Under the pieces are notes generated by a model. That model saw only the letters and a program-made list of their open reading frames with translations, was not told where the DNA came from and did no database searches. A stretch of 24,640 nucleotides of DNA, taken from positions 89,667,800-89,692,439 of the forward strand of contig NC_057718.1 of the NCBI RefSeq assembly GCF_004010195.1. The letters are read 5' to 3'. The DNA comes from Chiloscyllium plagiosum. Lineage: Eukaryota. Both the position numbers and the translations under genes were made by a program. Of this stretch, positions 430 to 24,640 are shown in pieces. The first letter of the stretch is position 1. Every line of letters begins with the position of its first letter.

Positions 430-608
430 TTTCCCACAGTGTAATGCACCCATTTCAGGAGAGCCTTCTTGGCACTGCCCTTGAATTTGGTGACGACCTT
501 CCTCTTGGACGGGGGGCTCCCAGTCTCAGAGTTGGCAGTACTGTCCACGGAGGAGGTGCTGCCGGAAAGCGATGACAGCAGCGACAGATTACTGGTCAGC
601 TCCTCGAT
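430..608 (-). CDS. SYNE1: Nesprin-1 coding exon: CH1-CH2 linker and start of CH2 (179 nt, phase 0 to 2)
   Basis: Translates to IEELTSNLSLLSSLSGSTSSVDSTANSETGSPPSKRKVVTKFKGSAKKALLKWVHYTVG(K). This closely matches recalled human nesprin-1 IEELTSNLPQLQSLSSSASSVDSIVSSETPSPPSKRKVTTKIQGNAKKALLKWVQYTAGK. AG acceptor at 609-610; GTGAGT donor at 424-429. Confidence 0.95.
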
Positions 609-710: not shown

Positions 711-803
711 CTGGAAGTACAAGATGATGGTCCAGATCAAACCCAGCACAATCGATGGCCTCCCATCAACGATGTCAGTGGAATTGATGTTGACCAGTTT
801 AAT
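711..803 (-). CDS. SYNE1: Nesprin-1 coding exon: C-terminal part of CH1 (93 nt, phase 0/0)
   Basis: Translates to [31 protein letters not shown], the spectrin-family CH1 signature. Acceptor tttttcttacag; donor CAG|gttgga. Missed by the ORF track. Confidence 0.96.
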
Positions 804-2801: not shown

Positions 2802-3524
2802 CTTTGCTACATTACAATGGTTCAAAAATACTACATTGGCTTTAGGACCAAGGTGGTGAAAAGATGTGATAAAAATGCAATTATACGAGCCTGACTCTTC
2901 CTTTCAAAGTTATCTCAAAGTAAAAAAAAAATTAAAACACATCTGAAAGCTCATCTTCCTAAATAAAAAGAAAATTGCCATCAGCAAACAAACGCAGAGC
3001 GCTATGTTCCGAGATTGTTTGAAGGCATCTGTCAAAGAGAGTACTAAATTAACCAAGGAGGTTTCAGTGAGGAGGAGGCCTGTTCTGCTAATGGTAACTG
3101 CTGACAAACCTTGTACACTAGAGGAAGAGATGCTGAAGGAAGCTAGGCCAGTAATAGCACTCAGCAGTGAAACAATTGTGCATTTCAACATCTCAAACAG
3201 CAATTAAAATAAACAACACTCAGTCAGCGCTGGAAATATTCGAAAAATAGCAGCAAGTTTGATCAAAGAGGTAAATTTTGAGGCGGAGAGGTTTCTAGAG
3301 GGCATTTCAGAGGGTGGGGTGTGGGTGGTGAAAAACTGATGTTAAATTTCAGGACATGTGTAAATTTCCACTTGAAAGACAATGACACATGCGAGATTCC
3401 ACTTAATGAACAGCAGGAAATGAGTATTTGTGTATTGATGATTTGCCACAGATGGAACACATGAAACAGCAAACAGACACAACCAGGCTGGAAAAACGAG
3501 TTTTGTGATGTTGAGATCACTGAC

Positions 3525-3545
3525 CGGTGATCCTCTGTAGACCGA
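3525..3545 (-). CDS. SYNE1: Nesprin-1 21-nt alternative microexon (SVYRGSP, phase 0/0)
   Basis: Minus strand reads ttctttttgtcacgctgccag|TCG GTC TAC AGA GGA TCA CCG|gtcagt. It fits in frame between ...LEGRR and IKLVN..., and resembles the SMHRGSP insert I recall at the same position in a human SYNE1 isoform. Confidence 0.85.
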
Positions 3546-3618
3546 CTGGCAGCGTGACAAAAAGAATTAAAGAGAATGTGTGTTTGGTTAGTCAAATGCT
3601 TTGCTCTGTCTGCATGCA
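3546..3618 (-). promoter_or_regulatory. Splicing signals upstream of the microexon: UGC motif, branch point/QKI-like ACUAAC, RBFOX-type UGCAUG
   Basis: On the minus strand: TGC immediately before the CAG acceptor, a pyrimidine tract, GACTAAC at 3587-3593 and TGCATG at 3613-3618. Motifs are seen directly; the factor assignments are inferred. Confidence 0.55.
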
Positions 3619-4243: not shown

Positions 4244-4695
4244 AAAAACAGAAATTGTTGGAAAAGCTCAGCAGATCTGGCAGCACCTGTGGAGGGAAAT
4301 CAGCATTAATGCTTCAGCTCTGGTGACTCTTCCTCAGAACTGGGTTGGGGCGAGATTTGGAAACTGGTGAAGTCGATGTTGATGGCGTGTGGTTGGAGGG
4401 TTCCAAGGTGTTCTCTCCCCAGTTGTCAGGTGGCTTGGATTTGTCAGTGGAGGAGGTCCAGGACTTGTGTAGTGGAGGAGGTCCAGGACGATCGTATTCC
4501 CAGCGTCCCTCCCCCAAATCCCCTCCCCCCTACCTTTTATCTCAGCCCACCTGGCACACCAGCCTCATTCCTGAAGAAGGGCTTATACCCGAAACGTCGA
4601 CTCTCCTGCTCCTCGGATGCTGCCTGGCCTGCTGTGTTTTTCCAGCATCACATTTTTCAACTCTGGTCTCCAGCATCTGCAGTCCTCACTTTCTA
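4244..4695. mobile_element. Composite Penelope-like fragments: minus pLTR end, inverted GIY-YIG piece, plus pLTR with hammerhead core
   Basis: 4340-4470 is the reverse complement of 5272-5402. 4490-4695 contains cctgaagaagggcttatacccgaaacgtcga and the tail ccagcatctgcagtcctcactttct, which is shared with other copies in the window. Confidence 0.8.
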
Positions 4696-5183: not shown

Positions 5184-5710
5184 CTGGAGCGTTTCAGGGA
5201 ACACCTCGGGGACACATGCACCAAACAACCCCACCGTCCTGTGGCCGAACCATTTCAATTCCCCCAAGGACACACAAGTCCTGGACCTCCTCCACTGACA
5301 AATCCAAGCCACCTGACAACTGGGGAGGGAACACCTTGGAACCCTCCAACCACACGCCATCAACATCGACTTCACCAGTTTCCAAATCTCGCCCCAACCC
5401 AGCTCATCCCAGGTCCAACCCTCCAACTCGGCACCGCCCTCTTGAACTATCCTACCTGTCCATCTTCCTTCCCACCAATCCGCCTCACCCTCCTCTCTGA
5501 CCTATCGCTATTAACCCCCAACTGCATCCACCAATGGCCTTCACAAATAGCTTTTCCCTGAGCCCCAACACCATCCCCATTTACCTCTCAGTCCCCCTTC
5601 CCCCTCAATATTCCTGATGAAGGGTTTATGTCCAAAACATCGACTGTCCTGCTCCTCGGATGCGGCCTGATCGGCTGTGCTTTTCCAGCACCACACTTTT
5701 CGTCTCTGGA
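5184..5710 (+). mobile_element. Penelope-like element 3' part: decayed GIY-YIG endonuclease C-terminus plus pLTR
   Basis: Frameshifted translation ERFREHLGDTCTKQPHRPVAE/HFNSP..KDTQVLDLLH*..LGTLQPHAINIDFTSFQIS. Then a C-rich stretch and a degenerate hammerhead core ctgatgaagggtttatgtccaaaacatc (5614-5641). Confidence 0.8.
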
Positions 5711-8630: not shown

Positions 8631-8714
8631 CCGTCTGCCCTCCAGAAATGTCAAAGCTGTTCCAATGTTGCTCACCCAGTGGATGCGTTTTGACTTACGC
8701 CCCTGTTCACAAGG
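8631..8714 (-). CDS. SYNE1: Nesprin-1 coding exon: middle of CH1 (84 nt, phase 0/0)
   Basis: Translates to PCEQGRKSKRIHWVSNIGTALTFLEGRR (recalled human PCEQGRRMKRIHAVANIGTALKFLEGRK). Acceptor tgttctggttttgcag; donor CGG|gtaagt. Confidence 0.95.
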
Positions 8715-11272: not shown

Positions 11273-11368
11273 CAGATTCTGTCCCGAGAGAACTTCCAAG
11301 AGGGCAAGTAGCATTACACCATCCTTGATATCTTCGAACAGATCATTGACTATAATTGGGGGATTGCG
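11273..11368 (-). CDS. SYNE1: Nesprin-1 coding exon: N-terminal half of CH1 (96 nt, phase 0/0)
   Basis: Translates to RNPPIIVNDLFEDIKDGVMLLALLEVLSGQNL (DLFED.KDG..LL.LLEVLSG CH1 motif). Acceptor (ct)n-tctgtttcag; donor CTG|gtgagt. Confidence 0.96.
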
Positions 11369-11378
11369 CTGAAACAGA

Positions 11379-11394
11379 AGAGAGAGAGAGAGAG
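11379..11394. repeat. (AG)8 microsatellite forming the polypyrimidine tract of the 11273-11368 exon
   Basis: Read directly; it is (CT)n on the transcribed strand, 10 nt from the exon. Confidence 0.85.
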
Positions 11395-11473
11395 ACACTT
11401 AGTACTGGGTCTTAACCAGGGTAGGTTAGATAGGCAGAGGGGTCAGGGGACTGGAGTATCAACTTGATCAACA

Positions 11474-11753
11474 GTAGCTCAGTGGTTAGCACTACTACCT
11501 CACAGCAGTAGAAATCTGGGTTTGATTCCACCCTCATGCAAATGTCTGCATGGAGATTGCAAATTTCCCTGTGTCTGTGTGGGCTTCCTCCCACGTTCCA
11601 AAGTCGTGCAGGTGAGGGTGGATTGGCCATGCTGAATTGCCCACAGTCTACAGGCTAGCCATGGGCAATACAGGGATGGGGTGGGTCTGGGTGGAATGCT
11701 CTTCAGAGGGTTAGTGTGGGCCAAATGGCCTGCGTTTGCACTGAAGGGTTTCA
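11474..11753 (+). mobile_element. HE1-type V-SINE (diverged)
   Basis: gtagctcagtggttagcact head, core and tail. Confidence 0.88.
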
Positions 11754-11960
11754 ATCTTTTTCTTTAAAAAGCTTGGCTGCTCGTTGAAGATGGAAGGGCT
11801 GAGTAAACTGTATTCAGATGCCTCAGCTATTAGTGGGAAGGTGAGGGAGGTCTGACCTCAGATCTCAGGGTGTTGCTCTCATTGCAAGGAGATGGTTCCA
11901 TTCTGCAACTCGAGAGCAGAACTCAACTCTACCCCTTCCCTCATTAAAGCACAAATGTTT

Positions 11961-12292
11961 GGGGTTGTACAGTGGCTCAGCGGCAAGCACTGCTTCCTCA
12001 CAGCACCAGGGACCCAGGTTCAATTCCAGCCTCGGGCGACTGTCTGTGTGGAGTTTGCACGTTCTCCCCGTGTCTGTGTGGATTTCCTCTGGGTGCTCCA
12101 GCTGCCTCCCACAAATCAAAGTTGCATTGGTTAGGTGAACTGGCCATGGGAAATTACCCATAGTGTCCAGGGATGTTTAGGTTAGTTGCATAAGTCAGGG
12201 GTAAATATAGGTTAGGGGAATGGGTCTAGGTGGGATACTCTTTGAAGGGTCAGTGTGGACTTGTTAGGCACACTGTAGGGATTCTATGATTC
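11961..12292 (+). mobile_element. HE1-type V-SINE
   Basis: Head, B box ggttcaattcc, core and tail gggattctatgatt. Confidence 0.9.
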
Positions 12293-12482
12293 ATTTGGAT
12301 TACAATGGGCATCCAATGGGTAACAAGATGGGCCCAACTCCATGCAATAGAGAAGCCTGATGAGCTGAGATGAGGCACTGCTGTTTCTCCTGACCCACAA
12401 GCAGTGCTGCAATGTTTCTCCCCCTTCTCACCTCACAATCAGGCTTTCTGAGGCCTGGGAAAGCCTGATGGCCAATGGTATC

Positions 12483-12610
12483 GAATCATGGATAGCCTAC
12501 AAGAGCAGATGGAGGCCATTCGACCCATCGAGTCTGCACCACCCCTCCCAAGAGCATCTTACCCTGACCCAGCTCCTCCCCAACCCACCCTATCCCTGCA
12601 ACCCCGTATT
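12483..12610 (-). mobile_element. HE1/CR1-type 3' tail fragment
   Basis: ggaggccattcgacccatcgagtctgcacc...caccctatccctgcaaccc is similar to 22925-23040. Confidence 0.65.
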
Positions 12611-13394
12611 TATCAGGAAAATGTTTCTCTACAAAGTCGGTGAGCTCAGTGGCATTAAAACAGCATTAAAAACCAGCAGCATTACAGTGGTTAAACTGCC
12701 AACTCAGCTCCTGGAAGCAGTTTGGCTGGCCATCCCTTTGTCCAGCATCCAGTTAAACCCAAAATGGTTCCAGAACATCCCTTTAAATATGCAAATACAA
12801 AAACTCAGAGTCTGACCCTTCCCAGAAGCATTGACTCAGAGCTGCAGCAAAGGTAAGAGAGCACAGTCTGAGCAATAAATGCCCAGAGTGAACAACAAAG
12901 CCAATAATTGTTAATAAACTCACTTCTGGACACTTTGTACTGTCTTTGTCAAGTACATGGCAAAGAGGTAGTATTCTGATAGGAGATTATACGCACAGTT
13001 ATCACTCAAACGGGGAATGAGCATGTCCTGAAGATTGTACCAACTGTGAGTCAGTCAATCACCCAACATTTTCTTTTTGTGAAACAACAGACTCCAGCTA
13101 CTTTCAGAGTACCTACTATAAATACCTTCCAGGGAAGTGCTCAAAGAAATTGAATCGAGCAGTGACCCACCCCCAGTTGTCCAGACAGCTAGAAAGGTCA
13201 AGCAGTTAATGGCAAGAACATGTCGTATCACATTCACCTACTGAGCTGTCAATCAACAGCAGAACACAGGTCACTCTGCCCCCTCCAGGTCTGTTGTGAC
13301 ATTCAGTTACATCATTGCTTCGTGTTGTTTGATGGTTTTTGCCCATTAAGTGTAATAGATCCAGCACATCCAAAAATGCAGCACTCCCTCCGTA

Positions 13395-14192
13395 TTAGGC
13401 TACAGTCTCATCTCTCCTCATATCGTTCTGAGTTCAAGTCCCACTCCAACATGTGAGCATAAAAACCATGGCTCTGTCTGCCTGTTCCCAGCTTGCTACT
13501 AAAGACGCTACTACTCTGAATAAAAGCTTTTTTTTTAATCCCATGAGTCTACACCAATATTAATCCCTCAATTAACAACACAAAAATACAAATCATGGGA
13601 AAATTAACAAACAGTGAAATTCACAACTAATCTTGGAGGAACCTGTTTGGGTGAAGTTCACAGCACAGAATCAGGTAAGTTAATTGTTGTTTTAAATTGT
13701 TGTTGTTGTTTTAAGTGTGTCCAACAGAAAGGCTGCAGTAGTGAGTAGAGTTGGTTCTTTCTTGATTATCTAGAGGGCATAGGTTTAGGGTGAGAGGGAA
13801 GGATATTAAAGAGACCTAAGGGGCAACCTTTTCACACAGAGGGTGGTACGTGTATGGAATGAGCTGCCAGAGGAAGTGGTGGAGGCTGGTACAATTGCAA
13901 CATTTAAGAGGCATTTGGATGGGTATATGAATAGGAAGGGTTTGGAGGGATATGGGCCGGGTGCTGGCAGGTGGGACTAGATTGGGTTGGAATATCTGAT
14001 CAGCAAGAACGGGTTGGACCCAAGGGTCTGTTTCCATGCTGTACATCTCTGTGACTCTATAACATCTGGCTATAACGTTCTGTGCATGTTTCCTATTTAA
14101 CACCAGCGAATTTCCAAAGAAATAAATTGGCTGGAAAGCTCCTTGAGATACCCAATGGGAATGAAAAGCCTGATACAAATGCAAGTCTTTCT
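13395..14192 (+). mobile_element. Deu-SINE-like (SacSINE1-type) element interrupted at ~13597-14060
   Basis: Head gagttcaagtcccactcca, body ccaatattaatccctcaattaacaacacaaaa, and after the insert the tail gtttcct...attggctggaaagc...aaatgcaagtcttt. Family name recalled, not searched. Confidence 0.55.
13770..14060 (+). mobile_element. Young HER1/CR1 LINE 3' end
   Basis: RGHRFRVRG..Y.RDLRGNLFTQRVVRVWNELPEEVVEAGTIATFKRHLDGYMN; highly similar to the inverted copy at 24345-24640. Confidence 0.92.
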
Positions 14193-14372
14193 CGCTTTTT
14201 CCCTTTGCAAGTGTCATGGGTGGGATTCGATCCTGCAACCTTTTGACGCAAAGTACCATCTGCTGCGGGGAGTAAGAATGGTTCTGCACTGGTCCAAGGA
14301 TCAACAAGAGGTAGACACTTTTCTACAGACACCGTGCTTTAAAGGGTAAAGTCTGGGCAATCTTTTACAGGA

Positions 14373-14465
14373 GGAGAAAGTGAGGTCTGCAGATGCTGGA
14401 GATCAGAGCTGAAAATGTGTTGCTGGAAAAGCGCAGCAGGTCAGGCAGCGTCCAGGGAACAGGAG
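14373..14465 (-). mobile_element. Penelope-like pLTR 3' fragment
   Basis: Reverse complement of the 4603-4694 tail (ggagaaagtgaggtctgcagatgctggagatcagag...). Confidence 0.8.
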
Positions 14466-15950
14466 TCTGAGCAACATGGATGATGGCAACACATGTGGCA
14501 ATGTCAGCCAAGCAGCCCAGCAAGGCCTGCCAAGATCATCTTGGGTTACCCGAGGCGGCACAGCGAGATTTTCATCTCGTTCATCTTCTGTTTCCCATCG
14601 TACAACGTCGAGAAGACCCGAGGCGGGAAGTGGGAACGGGAGCCTGGCGAATCCCACTCACGACTACTCCAAACGTTGGGCACCAGGCACCAAACCCTCA
14701 GGGCATGGTCCATGGGTACCATACCCATGTCCCTTACGTCCACTGGCATTGGTGGAGCAGGCTGAAAGAGCTAAATGCCCTGCTCTCACTCCCAGTGTCT
14801 ACTTCTCTAGTGACAGGAGCCTTCAAAGTGCACCTTGGAGGGAAACAGGAACTATCACTGTACTGTCGCAACAAGGACACTGTGCTCTCAGGGACACACG
14901 TCCAGCTCACAGATTGGACCAGGACACAGCCTCAGGCTCTTCAGTTTCTCTCTCTGAGCCCACCTGGATGCTGACAGAAGCCCTGCCTTGCCTTTTTGGG
15001 CTCTAGACCCCTCAACCAGAGATACCTGGTCCATATGCCTTCTGTCTTGCCTCATAGTTTAGCACGGACACTACGCCCGGAAACTTCTCACAGCGATCAG
15101 CATGATGCGGTCAACGCAAAAGGTGGCAGCCTTCGATTGGTGGGGGATCTAGGCACATTTAAGTTAAGGGCAAATTCCGATGCCCATCCAGGGGCTTGAA
15201 CATGGTCAGTGGGCCACTCGACGAGGGTCAGAGTCAGGACGCTCTCCACACAATGGTTGAGGGGCCTTATATCGGCTCAGCCCATTCCCTATGACTCTTT
15301 CTGCCCTCTTGGGAGGCTGTCTCCCTCCTGGAATGCGAAAGATGGGCAGGTGTTAAGGGAGGCGAAAATGGGTGGCACAGACATGATTTTCCATGCCAAT
15401 GGGGATGTGTTCCAAGGGAGCAGACAGCGCAGAGGGCACGCAGGGTTAGTGCTATCGGGAGCTGGAGTGGACCTCAGCAAATGAGGGAAGACGCTGCATT
15501 AGTCGGAGTGGTGAGAGCACGGGTCTCGGTGGGAGGTGGACGCAGTAGCAGAGGCTGAGAGAGTGTAAGGTGTCGGAGAGAAGACGGCAGGGCACTTACA
15601 CTGTCGGAGTGGAGAAGGATATGGACGTTCCCTGCGACAATCCGTGCTTTCTCCAGATGACAGAGGCTGCCCTGATCTGGACGGCAACCTTGCACCAGGC
15701 TGGCTTGGCATAGTCAGGTGTCTGGAGCTCTCCTGCTGCTCCTGGGGGAAGAGGAAGTCCTGCCTCTTTACCACCCTGTCCCAGAGGGAGCTCAGGAACA
15801 TCAGGAATGGTGCAGGGCAACTCCTGACTTAACAGCGCTCGTCTAGGTGCACAATGGGCTTTCAAAGATGGCACGGGCACCAGAGATGCCAGCAAATCCT
15901 GGACAATCTGCTGAGTGGCAAGTGGGAAGGGTAGAACCAAGCATGACACA
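14466..15950 (-). pseudogene. Decayed intron-containing Myb/SANT-like ORF, probably from a PIF/Harbinger DNA transposon
   Basis: GC-rich block. Joining minus frames at ~15600-15830 gives L.DRVVKRQDFLFPQ...RHLT/KPAWCKVAVQIRAASVIWR/TDCRR../LLHS|gtaagt (donor 15594-15599). An acceptor at 15328-15329 is followed by ...ADIRPLNH/ERV-like residues. This pattern resembles NAIF1/MSANTD-type Harbinger ORF1. Multiple frameshifts and stops. Confidence 0.55.
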
Positions 15951-16129
15951 TGCCATAGGTATAAGGTAGGTTAAATAACGCAGCCAGTTTGATAAGATAT
16001 GGTGAGGAAACTCGGAGGGCCTTGCAATATAAATCCCTCCAAAACTTTAGACGTAACTCACCCTTAGCAAAGGAAATATTAAGATTTAGTCCCCTGAAGT
16101 GATGTTACTTTAGTCAGACTCTGGCCTCC

Positions 16130-16420
16130 TGACCTTCTAGGAGTTAGGCCACTCAGGACTGAGGTAAGGAGGAAATATTTCACTCAGGGGGAGGAGAAGT
16201 TTTGAAAGTGGCTACTCCAGGGGGTTGTAACAATTCAATCATTCAAGACAGAAACTGATAGTTCTCCAACTATTAAAAACATCAAGGGATATGGCAATTG
16301 TGCAGGAAAATAACACTGAGGTAGAAGATCAGCCACGATCCAGTTGCATGACTGAACAGGTTAGATGGGCTGAATGGCCTGCCCTTGCTTCTGATTCCTA
16401 TGTTCCTGTGTTCTTAGTTT
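16130..16420 (+). mobile_element. Old CR1 LINE 3' end
   Basis: RPLRTEVRRKYFTQG...; 3' UTR gatcagccacgatc...gggctgaatggcct...cctatgttcctgtgttc. Confidence 0.8.
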
Positions 16421-16796
16421 CTTGCACTTCTGCTGGCAACTCCCATGGGACAATGGGTCCTCAAGTTTGCTGTCAGAATTGGATCTCTGGTTCCAATACA
16501 TACAAGCCTCCAACAGCAATGCCTTCACCTGAGGAGCAGTGAGAAGGATATGGGTAGCATCGCAGTGAGAACACCACTATGCCAAGTCATATACCAGCCT
16601 TTGTGAATAAGGGTCTTGCATTGGCGGTTTCCCAATCCTCTGGAATTTTCTCCAGAATCTAAGGATTCTTGGAAGATTACTATCAGTGTATCTACTACCT
16701 CTGTGGCTACTTCCTAGATACATCCCATCAGGTCCAGGGCAATTATTGGCCTTTAGCCCTATTAGTTTCCCCGTACTTTTTCTGTTATGATACCTT

Positions 16797-17127
16797 ATCA
16801 GATGATTTCCCTACAGTGTGGAAACAGACCCTTCGGCCCAACAAGCCAACACTGACCCTCTGAAGAGTAACCCACCCAGACCCATTCCCCTACCCTATAT
16901 TTACTCCTGGCTAATGCATCTAACACTGTGGGCAATTTAGCATGGCCAATTCACCTAACCTGCACATCTTTGGACTGTGGGAGGAAACCGAAGCACCCAG
17001 AGGAAACCCACGCAGACACGGGAAGAACGTGCAAACTCCACACAGACAGTCGCCCGATGCTGGAACTGAACCCGGGTCCCTGGCGCTGTGAGGCAGCAGT
17101 GCTAACCACTGAGCCACCACGCCACCC
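16797..17127 (-). mobile_element. HE1-type V-SINE, full length, low divergence
   Basis: Starts gggtggcgtggtggctcagtggttagc; many CpGs retained; full tail. Confidence 0.93.
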
Positions 17128-17883
17128 ATAAATATATCTATTGTATTTATTTCTGTCCCCCCTTTGAGTATTTAGTAATTTTGGAATATTATCAATGTCC
17201 TATACCATGAAGACAGATGCAAAGTATTTATTCAGCGCCCCTACAATTCACTGGTTCTCCATTATTATTTTACCAGCCTCATTCGAAAGGGGCCAAATGG
17301 CCTCTCTCATCCTTTTCATTTGTTAAAATAGTTTTACTGTCTGCTTTGATACTCCTTCCTAGTTTGCCTTCAAAATTTATTTTTGCCTTCTTTACATTTT
17401 GGTCATCTTTTGTTTGATTTTTAAAATGCTCCCAAATACTTAGCAACAATCTTTTCCACATTTTACGATTTATTTTCTTTCAATGTGAAACTATCCTGAA
17501 CTTTTTTGGTTAACGATGATTAGTTTAGCACTATCCCAGAATCGTTCTTCCTCACTGGGCTGTGTCCTTTTTGTGAGGCATAAACTATTTTCTTAAAGGT
17601 TTCTTCTGCTACGCTCCTTTTTCCAATCTCTTCAATCAACTCCACCCTCATACCTTTGTAATTGCCCTGATTTCAGTTTAACGCAGTTGTTTCCAAACCA
17701 AGTTTCTCACTCTCCATCTGAATGCCAAACTTGACTATATTACTGTTTTCGAGGGGGTCTTTGAGATGATTCAATAAACCTGCCTCTTTACACATTACCA
17801 GATCCAAAATCCACATCTCTGGTTGGATCCACAACAAATTGCTTGAGGAGAATATACGCTATGAATTAATTCTAAGATGAGAG

Positions 17884-18078
17884 GAGTCAAAGAGGCGTAG
17901 AGACGTACAGCATGGAAACAGACCCTTCGGTCCAACCTGTCCATGCCGATCAGATATCCCAACCCAATCTAGTCCCACCTGCCAGCACCCGGCCCATATC
18001 CCTCCAAACCCTTCCTGTTCATATACCCATCCAAATCCCTTTTGAATGTTGCAGTTGTACCAGCCTCCACCACTTCTG
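17884..18078 (-). mobile_element. HER1/CR1 3' end
   Basis: Same sequence family as 24345-24530. Confidence 0.9.
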
Positions 18079-18225
18079 GGTAATCCAAGATGGAGGACAG
18101 GAAGAATTCCTGGCTGCAACAGCTGCTCCTTTTTTGAGGTATTTTAGGTGCTGGAGGTGATTTCCTCGAATTCCAGGAGCAGCAATTACTGTTTTATATG
18201 CTGTTGCATTGTTTTGGAACTTTTT

Positions 18226-18497
18226 GAGGTTGAGGAGAAAAAATATAAAAGGGAGCTGAGGGGCAACACTTTCACATGGGGGGAGGGGGTGGCTTGTGTG
18301 GAAAGAACTGCCAGAGGAAGTGGTAGTTGCAGCTTTTGTTGCAAAATTTAAAACTCATTTGGACAGGCATGTGAACAGGAAAGATTTAGAGCGATATGGG
18401 CCAAGCACAGGCAAATGGGACAAGCTAATTTGGGGAACGGGTCGGCATGGGAGAGTTGGACCGAAGGGTCTGTTTCCATGTTGTATGACTCTTTGAC
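18226..18497 (+). mobile_element. HER1/CR1 3' end
   Basis: KYKRELRGN.F...WKELPEEVV.A..VAKFKTHLDRHVNRK; tail ggaccgaagggtctgtttcc. Confidence 0.88.
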
Positions 18498-18760
18498 GTC
18501 CTCCTTGCTACTTCTTCCATTCAGATTTTCCTAATCTACATGGAGATTAACGGCATCCATGATGAACATCCTTGCCCTTTTTTTACATGCCGTCATTATT
18601 TCCTGATATATTCTCTCATCAGTGTCCTTTTCTGCTTGTTTTGGCTTACCTCCACCCAAATGGATTCTAGATGTTCCATTCCAAAAGCAATTGCTACTAT
18701 CGAACTTGGTCCATCTCATTCTAACAAAGCTTTTCCACCATCCTTTCCTTCTTGCCTGTC

Positions 18761-19070
18761 CATAAGACCATAAGGTAAAGGAGCAGAATTAGGTCATTCG
18801 GCCCATCCATCTGCTCTGACTGATATGTTTCTCAATCCAATTCTCCTCATAATCCTTGATCCCCTCATTCATCAAAAACCCTATCTACCTCTGTCTTTAA
18901 TATCCTCAATGACTTGACCCCCCACTACCATTTGCAGCAATCAGTTCCACAGATTCACCACCTTCTGGCTGAAGAAATTCCTCCTCATCCCAATTCTAAA
19001 GGGTCATCCCTTTATCTGAGGCCGTGCCCTTGGGTCCTAGTCTCTCTTCCTCATGGAGACTGTTTCTCCA
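18761..19070 (-). mobile_element. CR1 LINE 3' end
   Basis: cataagaccataag tail, gttccacagattcaccacc and gaagaaattcctcctcatc (RRNFF..VVNLWN on the minus strand). Confidence 0.85.
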
Positions 19071-19350
19071 TCCAAGTCTCTTGGTCCTTTCGAAAAGTCA
19101 CATACCATGGAATATTTGGTACTTAGCTTTGATCTTTGATGATAATTGGTGTCCTCCATGAGTAAATAAGAAAATTATAAATGACCCTGTTGCAAAAAGT
19201 CATGTAGATGGTACTCAATCCTCATTATAGTTGGTTTTTGCCCATGCTGGACATGGTCCACTCATTCCACAGCAAACCCCCAATGCAGAACAAGTGGAGG
19301 ACTGTATGTACACACTTGTCTCAGTAAACCTAAGTTAACAGTCATGATTT

Positions 19351-19555
19351 AGAGCTGCCGGTGTTGGACTGGGGTGGACAAAGTTAAAAATCACACAACA
19401 CCAGGTTATAGTCCAACAGATTTATCTGGAAGCATTAGCTTTCGAAGCGCTACCCCTTCATCACAATCACCTGATGAAGGACCAGCGCTCCGAAACTTAG
19501 TGCTTCCAAATAAACCTGTTGGCCTGTAACCTGGTGTTGTGTGATTTTGACTAAG
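19351..19555. mobile_element. Palindromic Penelope-derived element with two divergent hammerhead cores
   Basis: Long imperfect inverted repeat centred at ~19467. Plus core ctgatgaagg...ccgaaac at 19471-19496; degenerate minus core at 19437-19464. Confidence 0.8.
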
Positions 19556-19590
19556 TTAACAGTATATTTCTCTTCCACTTCCATGGAACT

Positions 19591-19593
<3 letters not shown>

Positions 19594-19631
<38 letters not shown>
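19594..19631. repeat. (AC)19 microsatellite
   Basis: Read directly. Confidence 0.97.
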
Positions 19632-19632
<1 letters not shown>

Positions 19633-19864
19633 AGGTAGCTACCAGAGATAGCAGCCTGTCTAAAACAGCACCCTTCCCCCTTCTCGGCTGGAGGGAGGCC
19701 CATGAAACGTGATTATTCTGTCAGTCCAGCATTGTCTCTCTCAGTGACACCACGATAGTGTAACAATGCACAGCAAGAAACTGCAAGCTCCATTGTTATA
19801 AGGTGTGATATCTTACTATTTCCCACCGCTACTGTATGAACATTATCACAGAATCTGTCTCACT

Positions 19865-20240
19865 ATAGAACCATGGAATCTTACAACTCTAAAGGACACT
19901 ATTTGGCCCATCGAGTCTGTACTATAAAGAAACTATTCGGTTAGCTCCTGCTCCCCTGCTGCTTCCCAGAGCCATGCTAACCTTCTCATTTCAAATACAG
20001 TATACAACTATATCCATCTCTCCCTTAGAAGTGAAATCAGCTTCCTCAACTCTGCTGGGCTGTGAACCCAGGGTAAACCGTGTGAAAAAATATCTCACTC
20101 CCCTCGTTCTTTTGCTGGCTGATTTCGATCTGTGTCCTCTGCTTACTGACTGTCCTATTGCTGAAAGCAAACTCTTTCCTTATCTAATCGATCAAAACAT
20201 TATCAACAGTTCCATTAAATCTCCTCTGACAGGCAATTTC
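19865..20240 (-). mobile_element. Highly diverged CR1 3' end
   Basis: atagaaccatggaatc tail, tttggcccatcgagtctg and gtgtgaaaaaa (FFT on the minus strand). Confidence 0.55.
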
Positions 20241-20304
20241 ATTTGGAAGCTTCTAGAGCGCTCATGTCATTTGTATCATCAGCAGACACAGGTGAAGTGC
20301 CCGA

Positions 20305-20689
20305 GGAGCAGGAAATTCGACCTTTCAGGCAAAAGCCCTTCATCAGGCATTCCTGCTCCTCGGATACTGCCTGATGAAGCGCTTTTCCAGCACCACTCTA
20401 ATCGAGATTCTGGTTTTCAGCATCTGCAGGCCTCACTTTTGCCTAGTTGATTTTAACCTTACTGTGAATCCTCTGGCAAGGATGCCGACCTTGAAGAAGT
20501 TCTCCTCCTCTCTCTACAAGAATCTCAGTGAGTCTCTCTCTCACTGCAACCCCCAGAGTATTCCTGATGAAGGGCTTTTGCCTGAAACGTCGATTTTCCT
20601 GCTCCTCGGATGCTGCCTGACCTGCTGTGGTTTTCCAGCACCGCTCTAATCTAGACTCTGGTTTCCAGCATCTGCAGTCCTCACTTTTG
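20305..20689 (+). mobile_element. Penelope-like insertion (inverted 5' stub plus partial tandem pLTRs) with 18-bp TSD
   Basis: cacaggtgaagtgcccga is duplicated at 20287-20304 and 20690-20707. Hammerhead cores on minus (20318-20346) and plus (20564-20591). The tail ccagcatctgcag..ctcacttttgc occurs twice. Confidence 0.88.
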
Positions 20690-21058
20690 CACAGGTGAAG
20701 TGCCCGAAGATTGGAGGATGGCTAATGTTTTGCCATCATTTAAGAAAGGCTGTAGGGAAAGGCTGGGGAACTAGAGGCCGAAAGCCTGATGTCTGCAGTG
20801 GATAAGTTGTTAGAGGGGATTCTGAGAGACAGGATCTAGAGGCATTTGGAGAGGCAGGGACTCATTTGGGATAGTCAGCATGGCTTTGTGCATGGGAAAT
20901 GGTGTCTCATGAATTAGACTGAGTTTCTTGAAGGGGTGACCAAGAAAGTAGATGACAGCAACACAATGGATGTTGTCTGCACGGACTTTAGCAAGGCCTT
21001 TGTCAAGGTACTGCATGGTAAATTGTTGAGTAAGGTTAAGTTACGTGGGATCCAGGGA

Positions 21059-21237
21059 CAAGGTCAGAGGTCAGACGGCACCAGGTTCAATCACCTGACG
21101 AAGGAGCAATCCTTCACAAGCTTTTGAAGCGTTGCCCCTTCATCAGGTGATTTCTAATAAACCTGCTGGACTATAACCTGGTGTCATCTCACTTCTGACC
21201 TTATCCACCCCAATCCAAAACCAGCACCTCCACATCA
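21059..21237. mobile_element. Penelope-derived palindromic insertion with 13-bp TSD
   Basis: tgggatccaggga at 21046-21058 and 21238-21250. Contains tcacctgacgaagg...ccttcatcaggtga and is related to 19351-19555. Confidence 0.82.
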
Positions 21238-22202
21238 TGGGATCCAGGGAGAACTAGCCAATTGGATACAAAATTGGCTTGACGGTAGGAGACAGAAGGT
21301 GATGGTAAGGGGGTTGTTTTTCAGACTGGTGGCCTGTGACCAGTGGTGTGTCACAGGGATCGGGGCTGGGCCCATGGTTGTTCATTATTAGATAAATGAT
21401 TTGGATGGGAATTTAGAAGGCATGGTTAGGACGTCTGCCAAGATTGGTGGCATGGTGGACAGTGAAAAAGGTTATCTGGGAATGCAGCGAGATCTTGTCC
21501 AACAGGGCCAGTGGCTGAGGAATGGCAGATGGAATTTAATTTAGATAAATGAACGGTGTTGCATTTTGGTAAAGCAAACCAGGGCTGGACTTACACAGTC
21601 AATGGTAGGGCCTTGAGGAGTGTCATAAAACAAAAAAATCTAGAAATGCAGGTTCATAGTTCCTTGAAAATGGTGTTACAGGTAGACAGGGTGTGAGGAA
21701 GGCTTTTGGTATGTTTGCTTTTATCGGTCAGAGCATTGAGGAGAGGAGATGGGACATCTTGCTGCAGCTGTATAGGACATCGGTGAGGCCACATTTGGAA
21801 TACAGTATGCACTTCAGATCACTCTGCTACAGAAAGGATATTATTAAACGAGACAGGTTTACTAGGGTGCCAGCTGGACTGGAAGGTTTAGGTTATAAGG
21901 AGAGGTTGGATAGACTGGGACTTTCTTCCCTGGAGCATGGGAAATCGAGAGATGACCTTATAGAAGTTTATAAAATCATGAGGGGCACAGATAAGGTAGA
22001 TAGCCAACACCTTTTCCCTGTGGCAGGGGAATCTAAATCTATAGGTTTAAGATGAGAGGGGAGAGATACGAAAGGATTGAGAGGGTCAATTTTTTCACAC
22101 TAAAGATGGTGAGGGTCTGGAACAGGCTGCCAGAGGTAATAGTGGAAGCGAGTACAACTTCATCATTTAAGAAATATTTCGACAGGTACATGGATGGGAC
22201 AT

Positions 22203-22265
22203 GCTGAAAATGTGTTGCAGGTCAGGCAGCATCCAGGGAACAGGAGAATCGACGTTTTGGGCATA
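22203..22265 (-). mobile_element. Short Penelope pLTR fragment within the LINE 3' end
   Basis: gctgaaaatgtgttgc..aggtcaggcagcatccagggaacaggagaatcgacgttttgggcata matches 14408-14465 and the reverse complement of 4585-4660. Confidence 0.75.
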
Positions 22266-22921
22266 CATACCAAAGCAAATAGGACTAGCTTAATTGTGAA
22301 AACTGAGTGGTACAGGCAAGATGGGCCGAAGGGTCTGTTTCCATGTTGTAGACCTCTAGGACACTATGACTATGGGTGATGCTGCAATGACAGGAGACAC
22401 TGTCAGTTAGGCCATACAGATCCAAGTGGTCAACGTGGTCAAGTCTAGATTGCTGTGTTGCTTAGCCTCTTTGGTAGGGCACACCAAAGGAGAGAATTTT
22501 ATATCGCTGCAGCTAATACTCCTGCAGGCAGCACTCTGAAACCCGCAGGATTTCCCACTGTAGAGAGTTTCTCACAAGGGAGGGAACGCCATCCACCCTT
22601 CCCAAGCCCAATGACAGGCAAGGGACAGAACTCCATGTGAGGGTGGTTCAATTACCACAGAAGCTTGCAGTTGGTTGTGTCAAAGATACTTGCCCAATCA
22701 GACCTAACGGACAGTCCCTAACCACGCAGACATGATTCCTACTCCCCACTGTCAACTTTTTTTGTAAAAGCTCATCTGTGTCATTTAGTGATGTTCCAGA
22801 TACTTAGCAAATGCTACACACTACTCAGACCCAGCAGCTCTATACAAGATTCACTGGTTGGTCTTTGTGCACTGAATTTGTAGTGAAGAAGACAGCATAT
22901 GGGGCAGAAATGAGAATCAAC

Positions 22922-23348
22922 AATTATAGGATCTCTACAGGAAGCAGGCCATTCGGCCCACCGAAACCACACCAACCGTCCAAAGAGCATCCCACTCAGA
23001 CACAGCCCCTCTCCACCCCCACCCTATCCCTGTAACCCTGAATTTCCCATGGCTAATCTACCTAGCCTGCACATCCCTGGACGCTACAGGGCAAATTAGC
23101 ATGGCCGACCCACCTGACCTGCACATCTTTGGACTGTGAGAGGAGACCTGAGCACCTGGAGGAAACCCTTTCCAAGCCCAATGATGGGCAAGGGGCAGAG
23201 CTCAACGTGAGGGTGGTATATCTGCCCCAGGAGACACAGGGAGAGTGTGCAAACTCCACACAGACAGTCGGCAGAGGCTGGGGCTGGAATCAAACTCGGG
23301 TCCCTGGCGCTGAGGCAGCAGTGTTAACCACTGAGCCCACCGTGCCGC
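22922..23348 (-). mobile_element. HE1-type V-SINE carrying a ~60-nt foreign insertion
   Basis: HE1 head, core and tail; the consensus ggaaacccacgcagacac is interrupted at 23169-23230. Confidence 0.9.
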
Positions 23349-23907
23349 AAAAGTGGAGGGAATGGGTGTGATGGGGTATAGGATATGACCTCTGTTGAAA
23401 TGCTGCTTGCCTCTCCTATACCACCTTTCCCTGAAGGGCACTGTGATGGTGTGGTACTGTTTCCTTTCAACTCCTAAGGTGCAACTTGAACACATCCTAA
23501 GGCCCAGTCTTCTGACAGCTTTTCAACAGGAAATGGTCCAATTGTATGTTGTGTATATTTTAAAATTCAATTTATGTTCACTTCCTGTCTACAAAGCCTT
23601 ACTGCCTGTTGTTATTTTCTGGCAGACCTCTGTGTCAATTTTTCTCCCCTATAAATTCATATTTCCACATTTATAATGGAAACTGCCTATGTAAACATGT
23701 CACACTGCAATTACACCCTCTCACCAGCAGTGGCTCTACAGGACTTCAGTCTCTCAGCTCCTCAGCCTATCCTAGAGAAAGACTCCTAAACCTCTCATCC
23801 TGTCCAATATTTCCTGGTTTAACCAATAGTAGCGATAACCTGATGATGACACTTGTCCTGCACTCGGGATTGCTACAAATGTACAAACAGACATAAAGAT
23901 CAAGTAA

Positions 23908-24141
23908 TGGATGCTGCCTGTCCTGCTGTGCTTTTCCAGCACCACTCTAATCTAAAGATCAAGTCAGTCAGGCCAAAAGAGGAAGGAATCCAGTCATTTA
24001 AAAGGCATCTGGATGGGTTTGGAGCCTTATGGGCCAACTGCTGGCATATGGGACTCCATTAATTTGGGATATCTGGTCGGCATGGATGCGTTGGACAGAA
24101 GGTCTGTTTCCGTGCTGTATACCTCTATGCCTCTATGACTT
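23908..24141 (+). mobile_element. Penelope pLTR scrap (23908-23953) plus HER1/CR1 3' end (~23980-24141)
   Basis: ggatgctgcctgtcctgctgtgcttttccagcaccactctaatcta, then SFKRHLDG and tail ctctatgcctctatgact. Confidence 0.75.
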
Positions 24142-24344
24142 ACTGAGGCAACATTGACTATCTAAAATGTAGCCTGCTCTCCACTCAACAGCCTGGCTTA
24201 TGAGAAACACCACAGTAGTTCAGATCATCACGGTATAATTTGTTTGGGCTCACTTGGGGTTTTACTAGAAGTGACAATGAGCCAACTCTCTAATCATCAC
24301 TCACGCCACATAGGGAAGTTAATGGCAGCAGAAACAATGGAACT

Positions 24345-24640
24345 GTCATAGAGTCATAGAGATGTACAGCATGGAAACAGACCCTTCGGTCCAACCCGTC
24401 CATGCCGACCAAATATCCCAACCCAATCTAGCCCCACCTGCCAGCACGCAACCCATATCCCTCCAAACCCTTCCTATTCATATACCCATCCAAATGCCTC
24501 TTAAATGTTGCAATTGTACCAGCCTCCACCACATCCTCTGGCAGCTCATTCCATACAAGTACCATTCTCTGTGTGAAAAAGTTGCCCCTTAGGTCTCTTT
24601 TATATCTTTCCCCTCTCACCCTAAACCTATGTCCTCTAGT
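24345..24640 (-). mobile_element. Young HER1/CR1 LINE 3' end (runs off the window)
   Basis: RGERYKRDLRGNFFTQRMVLVWNELPEDVVEAGTIATFKRHLDGYMNRKG; tail (ctctatga)n. Confidence 0.93.

Follow-up and report, generated by a model that had tools for sequence, protein, structure and literature searches.

In an intron of the SYNE1 gene of the shark Chiloscyllium plagiosum, we found a 21-nt segment encoding SVYRGSP that is, with near certainty, the orthologue of human nesprin-1 exon 6′ and probably a functional, alternatively spliced cassette microexon. Judged from the sequences, the shark and human exons are orthologous. The exon lies in a 24,640-nt stretch of DNA that was analysed as a whole (hereafter, the window), and it would insert seven residues into the CH1 domain of nesprin-1, just before actin-binding site 2 (ABS2).

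The microexon, its junctions and its host gene

The exons and splicing signals discussed below are the following, in the direction of transcription.

11273..11368, minus strand: earlier SYNE1 CH1 exon, 96 nt
8631..8714, minus strand: upstream SYNE1 exon, CH1 helix ending in LEGRR, 84 nt, donor GTAAGT
3613..3618, minus strand: TGCATG at -73, one of three in the intron (from sequence)
3587..3594, minus strand: branch-point-like TGACTAAC, branch A at 3588 (-43) (from sequence)
3559..3576, minus strand: polypyrimidine tract upstream of the microexon (from sequence)
3546..3551, minus strand: 3' splice site TGCCAG of the microexon, with UGC at -6 (from sequence)
3525..3545, minus strand: cassette microexon of 21 nt (SVYRGSP), orthologous to exon 6′ of human SYNE1 (from sequence, homologues and literature)
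3519..3524, minus strand: 5' splice site GTCAGT of the microexon (from sequence)
3314..3508, minus strand: downstream YCAY cluster (from motif counts)
711..803, minus strand: downstream SYNE1 exon IKLVN..YFQ, ABS2 and the end of CH1, 93 nt
430..608, minus strand: next SYNE1 exon, CH1-CH2 linker and the start of CH2, 179 nt

Read on the minus strand, window positions 3545..3525 are TCG GTC TAC AGA GGA TCA CCG (SVYRGSP), with GCTGCCAG directly on the 5' side and GTCAGT directly on the 3' side. The donor deviates by a C at +3 from the donor consensus GTRAGT. At the acceptor, the closest upstream AG is at -55, with none between there and the splice site. The microexon has phase 0 and AG/GT bounds and sits inside a CH1-coding intron of 7,827 nt, also of phase 0, between the LEGRR and IKLVN exons. 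Both the skipped and the included joins were open, and every junction was in phase 0; the frame-preserving, AG/GT-bounded 21-nt exon of the earlier note was thereby confirmed in the sequence.

The intron held 304 open in-frame AG..GT segments of 3-51 nt, so that AG/GT bounds alone are weak evidence for an exon; a filter on donor and pyrimidine content was passed by 5 of the 304. Under a mononucleotide model, a segment coding for S[VMIA][YH]RGSP was expected 2e-4 times in the intron, and 9e-7 times when AG/GT bounds were also required. The peptide match therefore excluded chance. A search with the 401 nt around the microexon, which passes over very common words, returned a single match in the 3.56-Gb assembly, namely the query itself, and the remainder of the intron contained many interspersed repeats. 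Separately, an inverted repeat of 134 nt was observed at window positions 4337-4470 and 5272-5405 (99% complementary, 801 nt apart), ~0.8 kb upstream of the microexon in the transcript direction; it may represent the terminal repeats of a young element, or else a pre-mRNA hairpin.

The four flanking exons matched 32/32, 27/28, 31/31 and 58/59 residues of a Chiloscyllium punctatum protein (P0060) and 32/32, 27/28, 31/31 and 57/59 residues of a Hemiscyllium ocellatum protein named 'nesprin-1-like' (P0001). With 96-100% identity to shark nesprin-1 models, these exons place the microexon in SYNE1/nesprin-1 rather than in SYNE2 or calmin, and a distinct SYNE2-like locus was present on contig C10. 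The acceptor of exon 803-711 reads ...TTACAG, followed by IKLVN, and the exon matched positions 78-108 of the 109-position Pfam CH model. The intron at 609-710, between two SYNE1 exons, has 102 nt, against kilobases for its neighbours. A tblastn search of window positions 11369-24640 revealed no additional exon for the N-terminus of nesprin-1, placing the next upstream SYNE1 exon more than 13 kb away.

An equivalent exon was also sought at the matching position of the SYNE2-like gene, and this candidate was rejected because the intron there, with only 103 nt, is unable to hold a spliceable exon. That intron (L011:395-293, minus strand, on G000:C10) nevertheless echoes the SYNE1 arrangement, with TGCCAG, an open 21-nt segment encoding SYNPNYS, and GTAATG; an exon there would leave introns of 55 and 27 nt on its two sides, lengths that do not permit splicing. 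In shuffles, some open AG-21-GT segment occurred in 3427/20000, and one also preceded by TGCC in 7/20000 (a post hoc count). The SYNPNYS segment may be a chance occurrence or a decayed relic; in the latter case, it would date the exon before the SYNE1/SYNE2 duplication.

Orthologues and age of the exon

Human nesprin-1 exon 6′ was listed as a cassette exon, from the single EST CF552114, in the part of Rajgor 2012 that describes it (PMC3388047). According to the same text, it is known from database clones only, and its splicing did not show up when U2OS and smooth-muscle cells were assayed by PCR. Isoform 4 of UniProt Q8NF91, as quoted in PMC10236026, carries the change K103 > KSMHRGSP. The human isoform with SMHRGSP at this site, which the earlier note had cited, is therefore real on both of these sources. 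The human and shark exons share the gene, the junction at the end of CH1, the length of seven residues and 5/7 residues. The shark peptide has V-Y where the human one has M-H, and as SVYRGSP it is the peptide of many birds, lizards and teleosts.

In a first set of 59 homologues, 52 spanned the junction as judged by a motif that was absent in 7. Among these 52, S[VMI][YH]RGSP was present in 27 (one by eye) and skipped in 24, and one held a four-residue artefact. The second set contained the insert in 20/61 proteins (one by eye), with 39 skipped and 2 having other text. Carriers included human and other mammals, birds, squamates, tuatara and teleosts, and both insert-containing and skipped forms were present among the nesprin-1 proteins of bony vertebrates. 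Both teleost duplicates apparently carry the insert, judging from Astyanax and Cyprinus models named 1a and from killifish and swamp eel, where a second type was assigned by its flanking sequence. Across 389 proteins, a pattern search picked out 53 inserts of seven residues, and 52 of them read S-x-[YH]-R-G-S-P; in this count, isoforms of one species are separate entries and related species are not independent. Part of this conservation could come from constraint on the codons by splice signals.

We also aligned the CH1 loop of 322 proteins, 314 of which were covered; the alignment is biased to one representative per cluster, and a few fragment rows may be misaligned. It took in named nesprin-2, plectin, dystonin, dystrophin, spectrin, MSP-300, echinoderm and hemichordate proteins, as well as unnamed representatives of calmin size. 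No insert was present in 278 of the covered proteins, the seven-residue insert was present in 28, all of nesprin-1 type, and the other 8 differed in loop length by -1, +1 or +4. Thus, none of the nesprin-2, calmin-like, plakin, dystrophin and invertebrate proteins examined carried the insert. The insert-like texts VGLV (P0045), VSFR (P0030), VR (P0360) and VKVQGRP (P0356) were rejected as model artefacts; these 2-7 unrelated residues at the junction are probably mis-predicted substitutes for the microexon.

None of the four nesprin-1 models from cartilaginous fish (Hemiscyllium, Chiloscyllium, Callorhinchus and Pristiophorus) contained the insert. The longest protein in the second homologue set was 7,901 aa, within a range to 9,219, so that full-length isoforms of ~8,800 aa were probably out of its reach; full-length isoforms of cartilaginous fish may already annotate the exon. 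The earlier statement that gene predictors often miss such exons holds here for these 4/4 cartilaginous-fish models alone; in bony vertebrates, the exon is widely annotated. Among nine Logan nesprin-1 proteins (assembled from sequencing runs) that spanned the junction, one (P0329) included the exon. Because the introns are kilobases long, this protein most likely reflects a spliced transcript. Since position, phase and peptide are common to this shark and bony vertebrates, the exon originated before the two lineages split, in agreement with the age that the earlier note had proposed. A name look-up of 20 proteins turned up no nesprin from lamprey or hagfish, and hence the origin could be older than jawed vertebrates.

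The insert in the CH1 domain

AlphaFold models of a protein with the insert (P0008, mean pLDDT 76.9) and one without it (P0327, mean pLDDT 79.4), which are two different vertebrate proteins, neither of them from shark, agreed in their CH1 helices. With the insert, the loop that follows the long third helix of CH1 increased from 9 to 17 residues, and the pLDDT of the insert loop was ~80 vs 91-97. These models suggest that inclusion would leave the CH1 fold intact and lengthen the loop just before ABS2. A fold search returned the actin-binding domains of plectin, MACF1, dystrophin, utrophin, actinin and filamin, all of them expected CH1-CH2 structures, and no nesprin structure was among the matches listed.

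The junction between the insert and the next exon reads S-P-I-K, which fits S-P-x-K and the CDK consensus S/T-P-x-K/R. Inclusion would thereby create a putative S-P-x-K motif for proline-directed kinases across the junction.

The first residue of exon 803-711 aligned to residue 112 of the alpha-actinin-2 chain 7ank_A. ABS2 of alpha-actinin-2 is given as L114-I138 in the relevant part of PMC13055992; this range maps to residues 3-27 of exon 803-711, which likewise run from L to I. On that definition of ABS2, the insert ends two residues before the equivalent of the site, and the proposal that the exon adjoins ABS2 was upheld.

The human protein P0028 (AFN44378.1, 494 aa) carries the exon 6′ insert and, from its size and domains, is probably the p56CH clone of PMC3388047. 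As described there, p56CH was seen on stress fibres and at focal adhesions in fibroblasts, and in the nucleolus of another cell type. If P0028 is p56CH, the insert therefore does not abolish actin association, and the localisation published in that paper describes an insert-containing form, despite the exon having escaped PCR in two cell types.

A comparable arrangement is known from plectin, whose exons 2alpha and 3alpha are short, in-frame, optional and tissue-restricted exons in a CH1-CH2 actin-binding domain; according to a review (PMC8464768), exon 2alpha raises actin binding. In keeping with an exon of 2alpha type, the shark insert sits in CH1 beside an actin-binding site. However, plectin is another gene, and because the plectin and dystonin proteins examined were without an insert at the nesprin junction, plectin 2alpha and 3alpha are analogues, not homologues.

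Splicing signals and candidate roles of the exon

The putative branch point of the microexon contains an ACTAAC that occurs nowhere else in the 7,827-nt intron and also fits the QKI motif. The TGCATG at -73 is an RBFOX motif, and a GCATG was present at +133 downstream of the microexon. YCAY, the NOVA motif, occurred 11 times in 250 nt downstream vs a mean of 5.2; a count of 11 was reached by 0/135 overlapping background windows and by 163/5000 shuffles, a modest enrichment that was assessed post hoc. YGCY, an MBNL-like motif, was at background (4 vs 3.7).

Neural microexons were reported to have a median branch-point distance of 45 nt vs 34 (PMC12871342), and UGC was reported between the branch point and AG in 74-79% of SRRM3/4 targets (bioRxiv 10.1101/2024.09.17.613571). 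As the class is described in these sources, SRRM3/4-dependent neural microexons are no longer than 27 nt and frame-preserving, with a long distance from branch point to AG and UGC near the 3' splice site. The shark exon shared these features, being 21 nt long (within the range of 3-27) and frame-preserving, with UGC at -6 and the branch A at -43. The class is also described with a strong 5' splice site, whereas the donor of the shark microexon is non-consensus (bioRxiv 10.1101/2024.09.17.613571). Taken at the level of sequence, the flanks resemble those of a regulated and probably neural microexon.

No 21-nt exon was listed under SYNE1/syne1 in the supplements of PMC12626424 (12 files), PMC7821500 (8) and PMC12868881 (1), or in those of PMC7935315 (12/19 files), PMC9303857 (12/18) and PMC12626420 (12/13). 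This search went by gene name, which some tables may not use, and some of the files were lists of SRRM3/4 targets. The SYNE1 exons found in these supplements were only those of 59, 69, 135, 141, 156 and 169 nt, and TOGA2 mentioned SYNE1 for its exon count only. On the whole, we consider neural control of the microexon fairly probable, with control in muscle or elsewhere having a sizable chance that falls short of even.

In the mechanism that we propose, and to which we give an even chance, regulated inclusion, most likely neuronal, makes the CH1 domain of nesprin-1 bind actin differently and renders it phosphorylatable at this place. Skipping would be the default, and only some tissues, with neurons the likeliest, would turn the exon on. 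The switch would be thrown by SRRM3/4, through the UGC beside the 3' splice site and the distant branch point, with NOVA helping via the downstream YCAY. Inclusion would then lengthen the loop before ABS2 while keeping the CH1 fold, and the next exon would complete the S-P-x-K kinase motif. The most likely effect would be that the grip of CH1 on F-actin is tuned, not abolished, possibly under the control of phosphorylation.

The same exon could instead be switched in striated muscle or heart by QKI, RBFOX and MBNL and would then affect the actin-binding loop in much the same way; we consider this somewhat unlikely. The ACTAAC branch point, the TGCATG at -73, the GCATG at +133 and the four downstream YGCY would suit such control, and the neural and SRRM3/4 supplements searched did not list the exon. 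However, YGCY did not exceed background, and three features are in line with the neural class as it has been described, namely the long branch-point distance, the YCAY cluster and the UGC at -6. Plectin 2alpha, on the side of muscle, was characterised in skeletal muscle according to the review cited above (PMC8464768).

Actin affinity might also be unchanged, with the insert serving as a surface loop for docking or phosphorylation that alters the partners or the localisation of CH-containing isoforms, for example nuclear vs actin-bound. The AlphaFold placement of the insert in a loop, with the core unchanged, is consistent with this, as are the invariant residues S, R, G, S and P, which are not bulky contact residues, and the reported presence of p56CH, a probable insert carrier, on stress fibres and, in another cell type, in the nucleolus. 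We nevertheless regard this role as unlikely: the insert lies two residues from ABS2 as defined in alpha-actinin-2, in a loop that hardly varies in length across the superfamily, and some effect on actin binding is therefore likely. We consider it highly improbable that splicing no longer includes the shark copy, be it a vestige or a chance match. The omission of the exon from all four cartilaginous-fish models would agree with disuse, but birds, lizards and teleosts have the identical peptide, the branch point, tract and both splice sites are intact, the chance expectation is 9e-7, and unused sequence would have decayed since the split.

A bolder and unlikely reading extends the neuronal mechanism. 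Of the CH1-CH2 proteins examined, nesprin-1 would be the only one to have acquired, in jawed vertebrates, a microexon specific to neurons, and this microexon would form a CDK5-type S-P-x-K site at the edge of the actin-binding face, completed by the next exon. Splicing and phosphorylation would then form a clutch on the coupling of the neuronal nucleus to actin, conserved from shark to human and relevant to SYNE1 ataxia.

A full-text literature search, to which most subscription papers were outside scope, returned no study of the function, tissue pattern or conservation of exon 6′. The human exon itself and its annotation in bony vertebrates were known before, as was the conservation of microexons as a class from shark to mammal, reported in the text of bioRxiv 10.1101/2024.09.17.613571; the surprise is therefore small. 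The present analysis adds the shark copy, which dates the exon to the ancestor of jawed vertebrates or earlier, and shows that an exon on record since 2012 encodes a nearly invariant peptide. The exon would complete the shark gene models seen here, all of which are without it, and it stands beside the actin-binding site of a disease protein. Nesprin-1, which anchors the nucleus, thus has an optional seven-residue insert as old as the jawed vertebrates.
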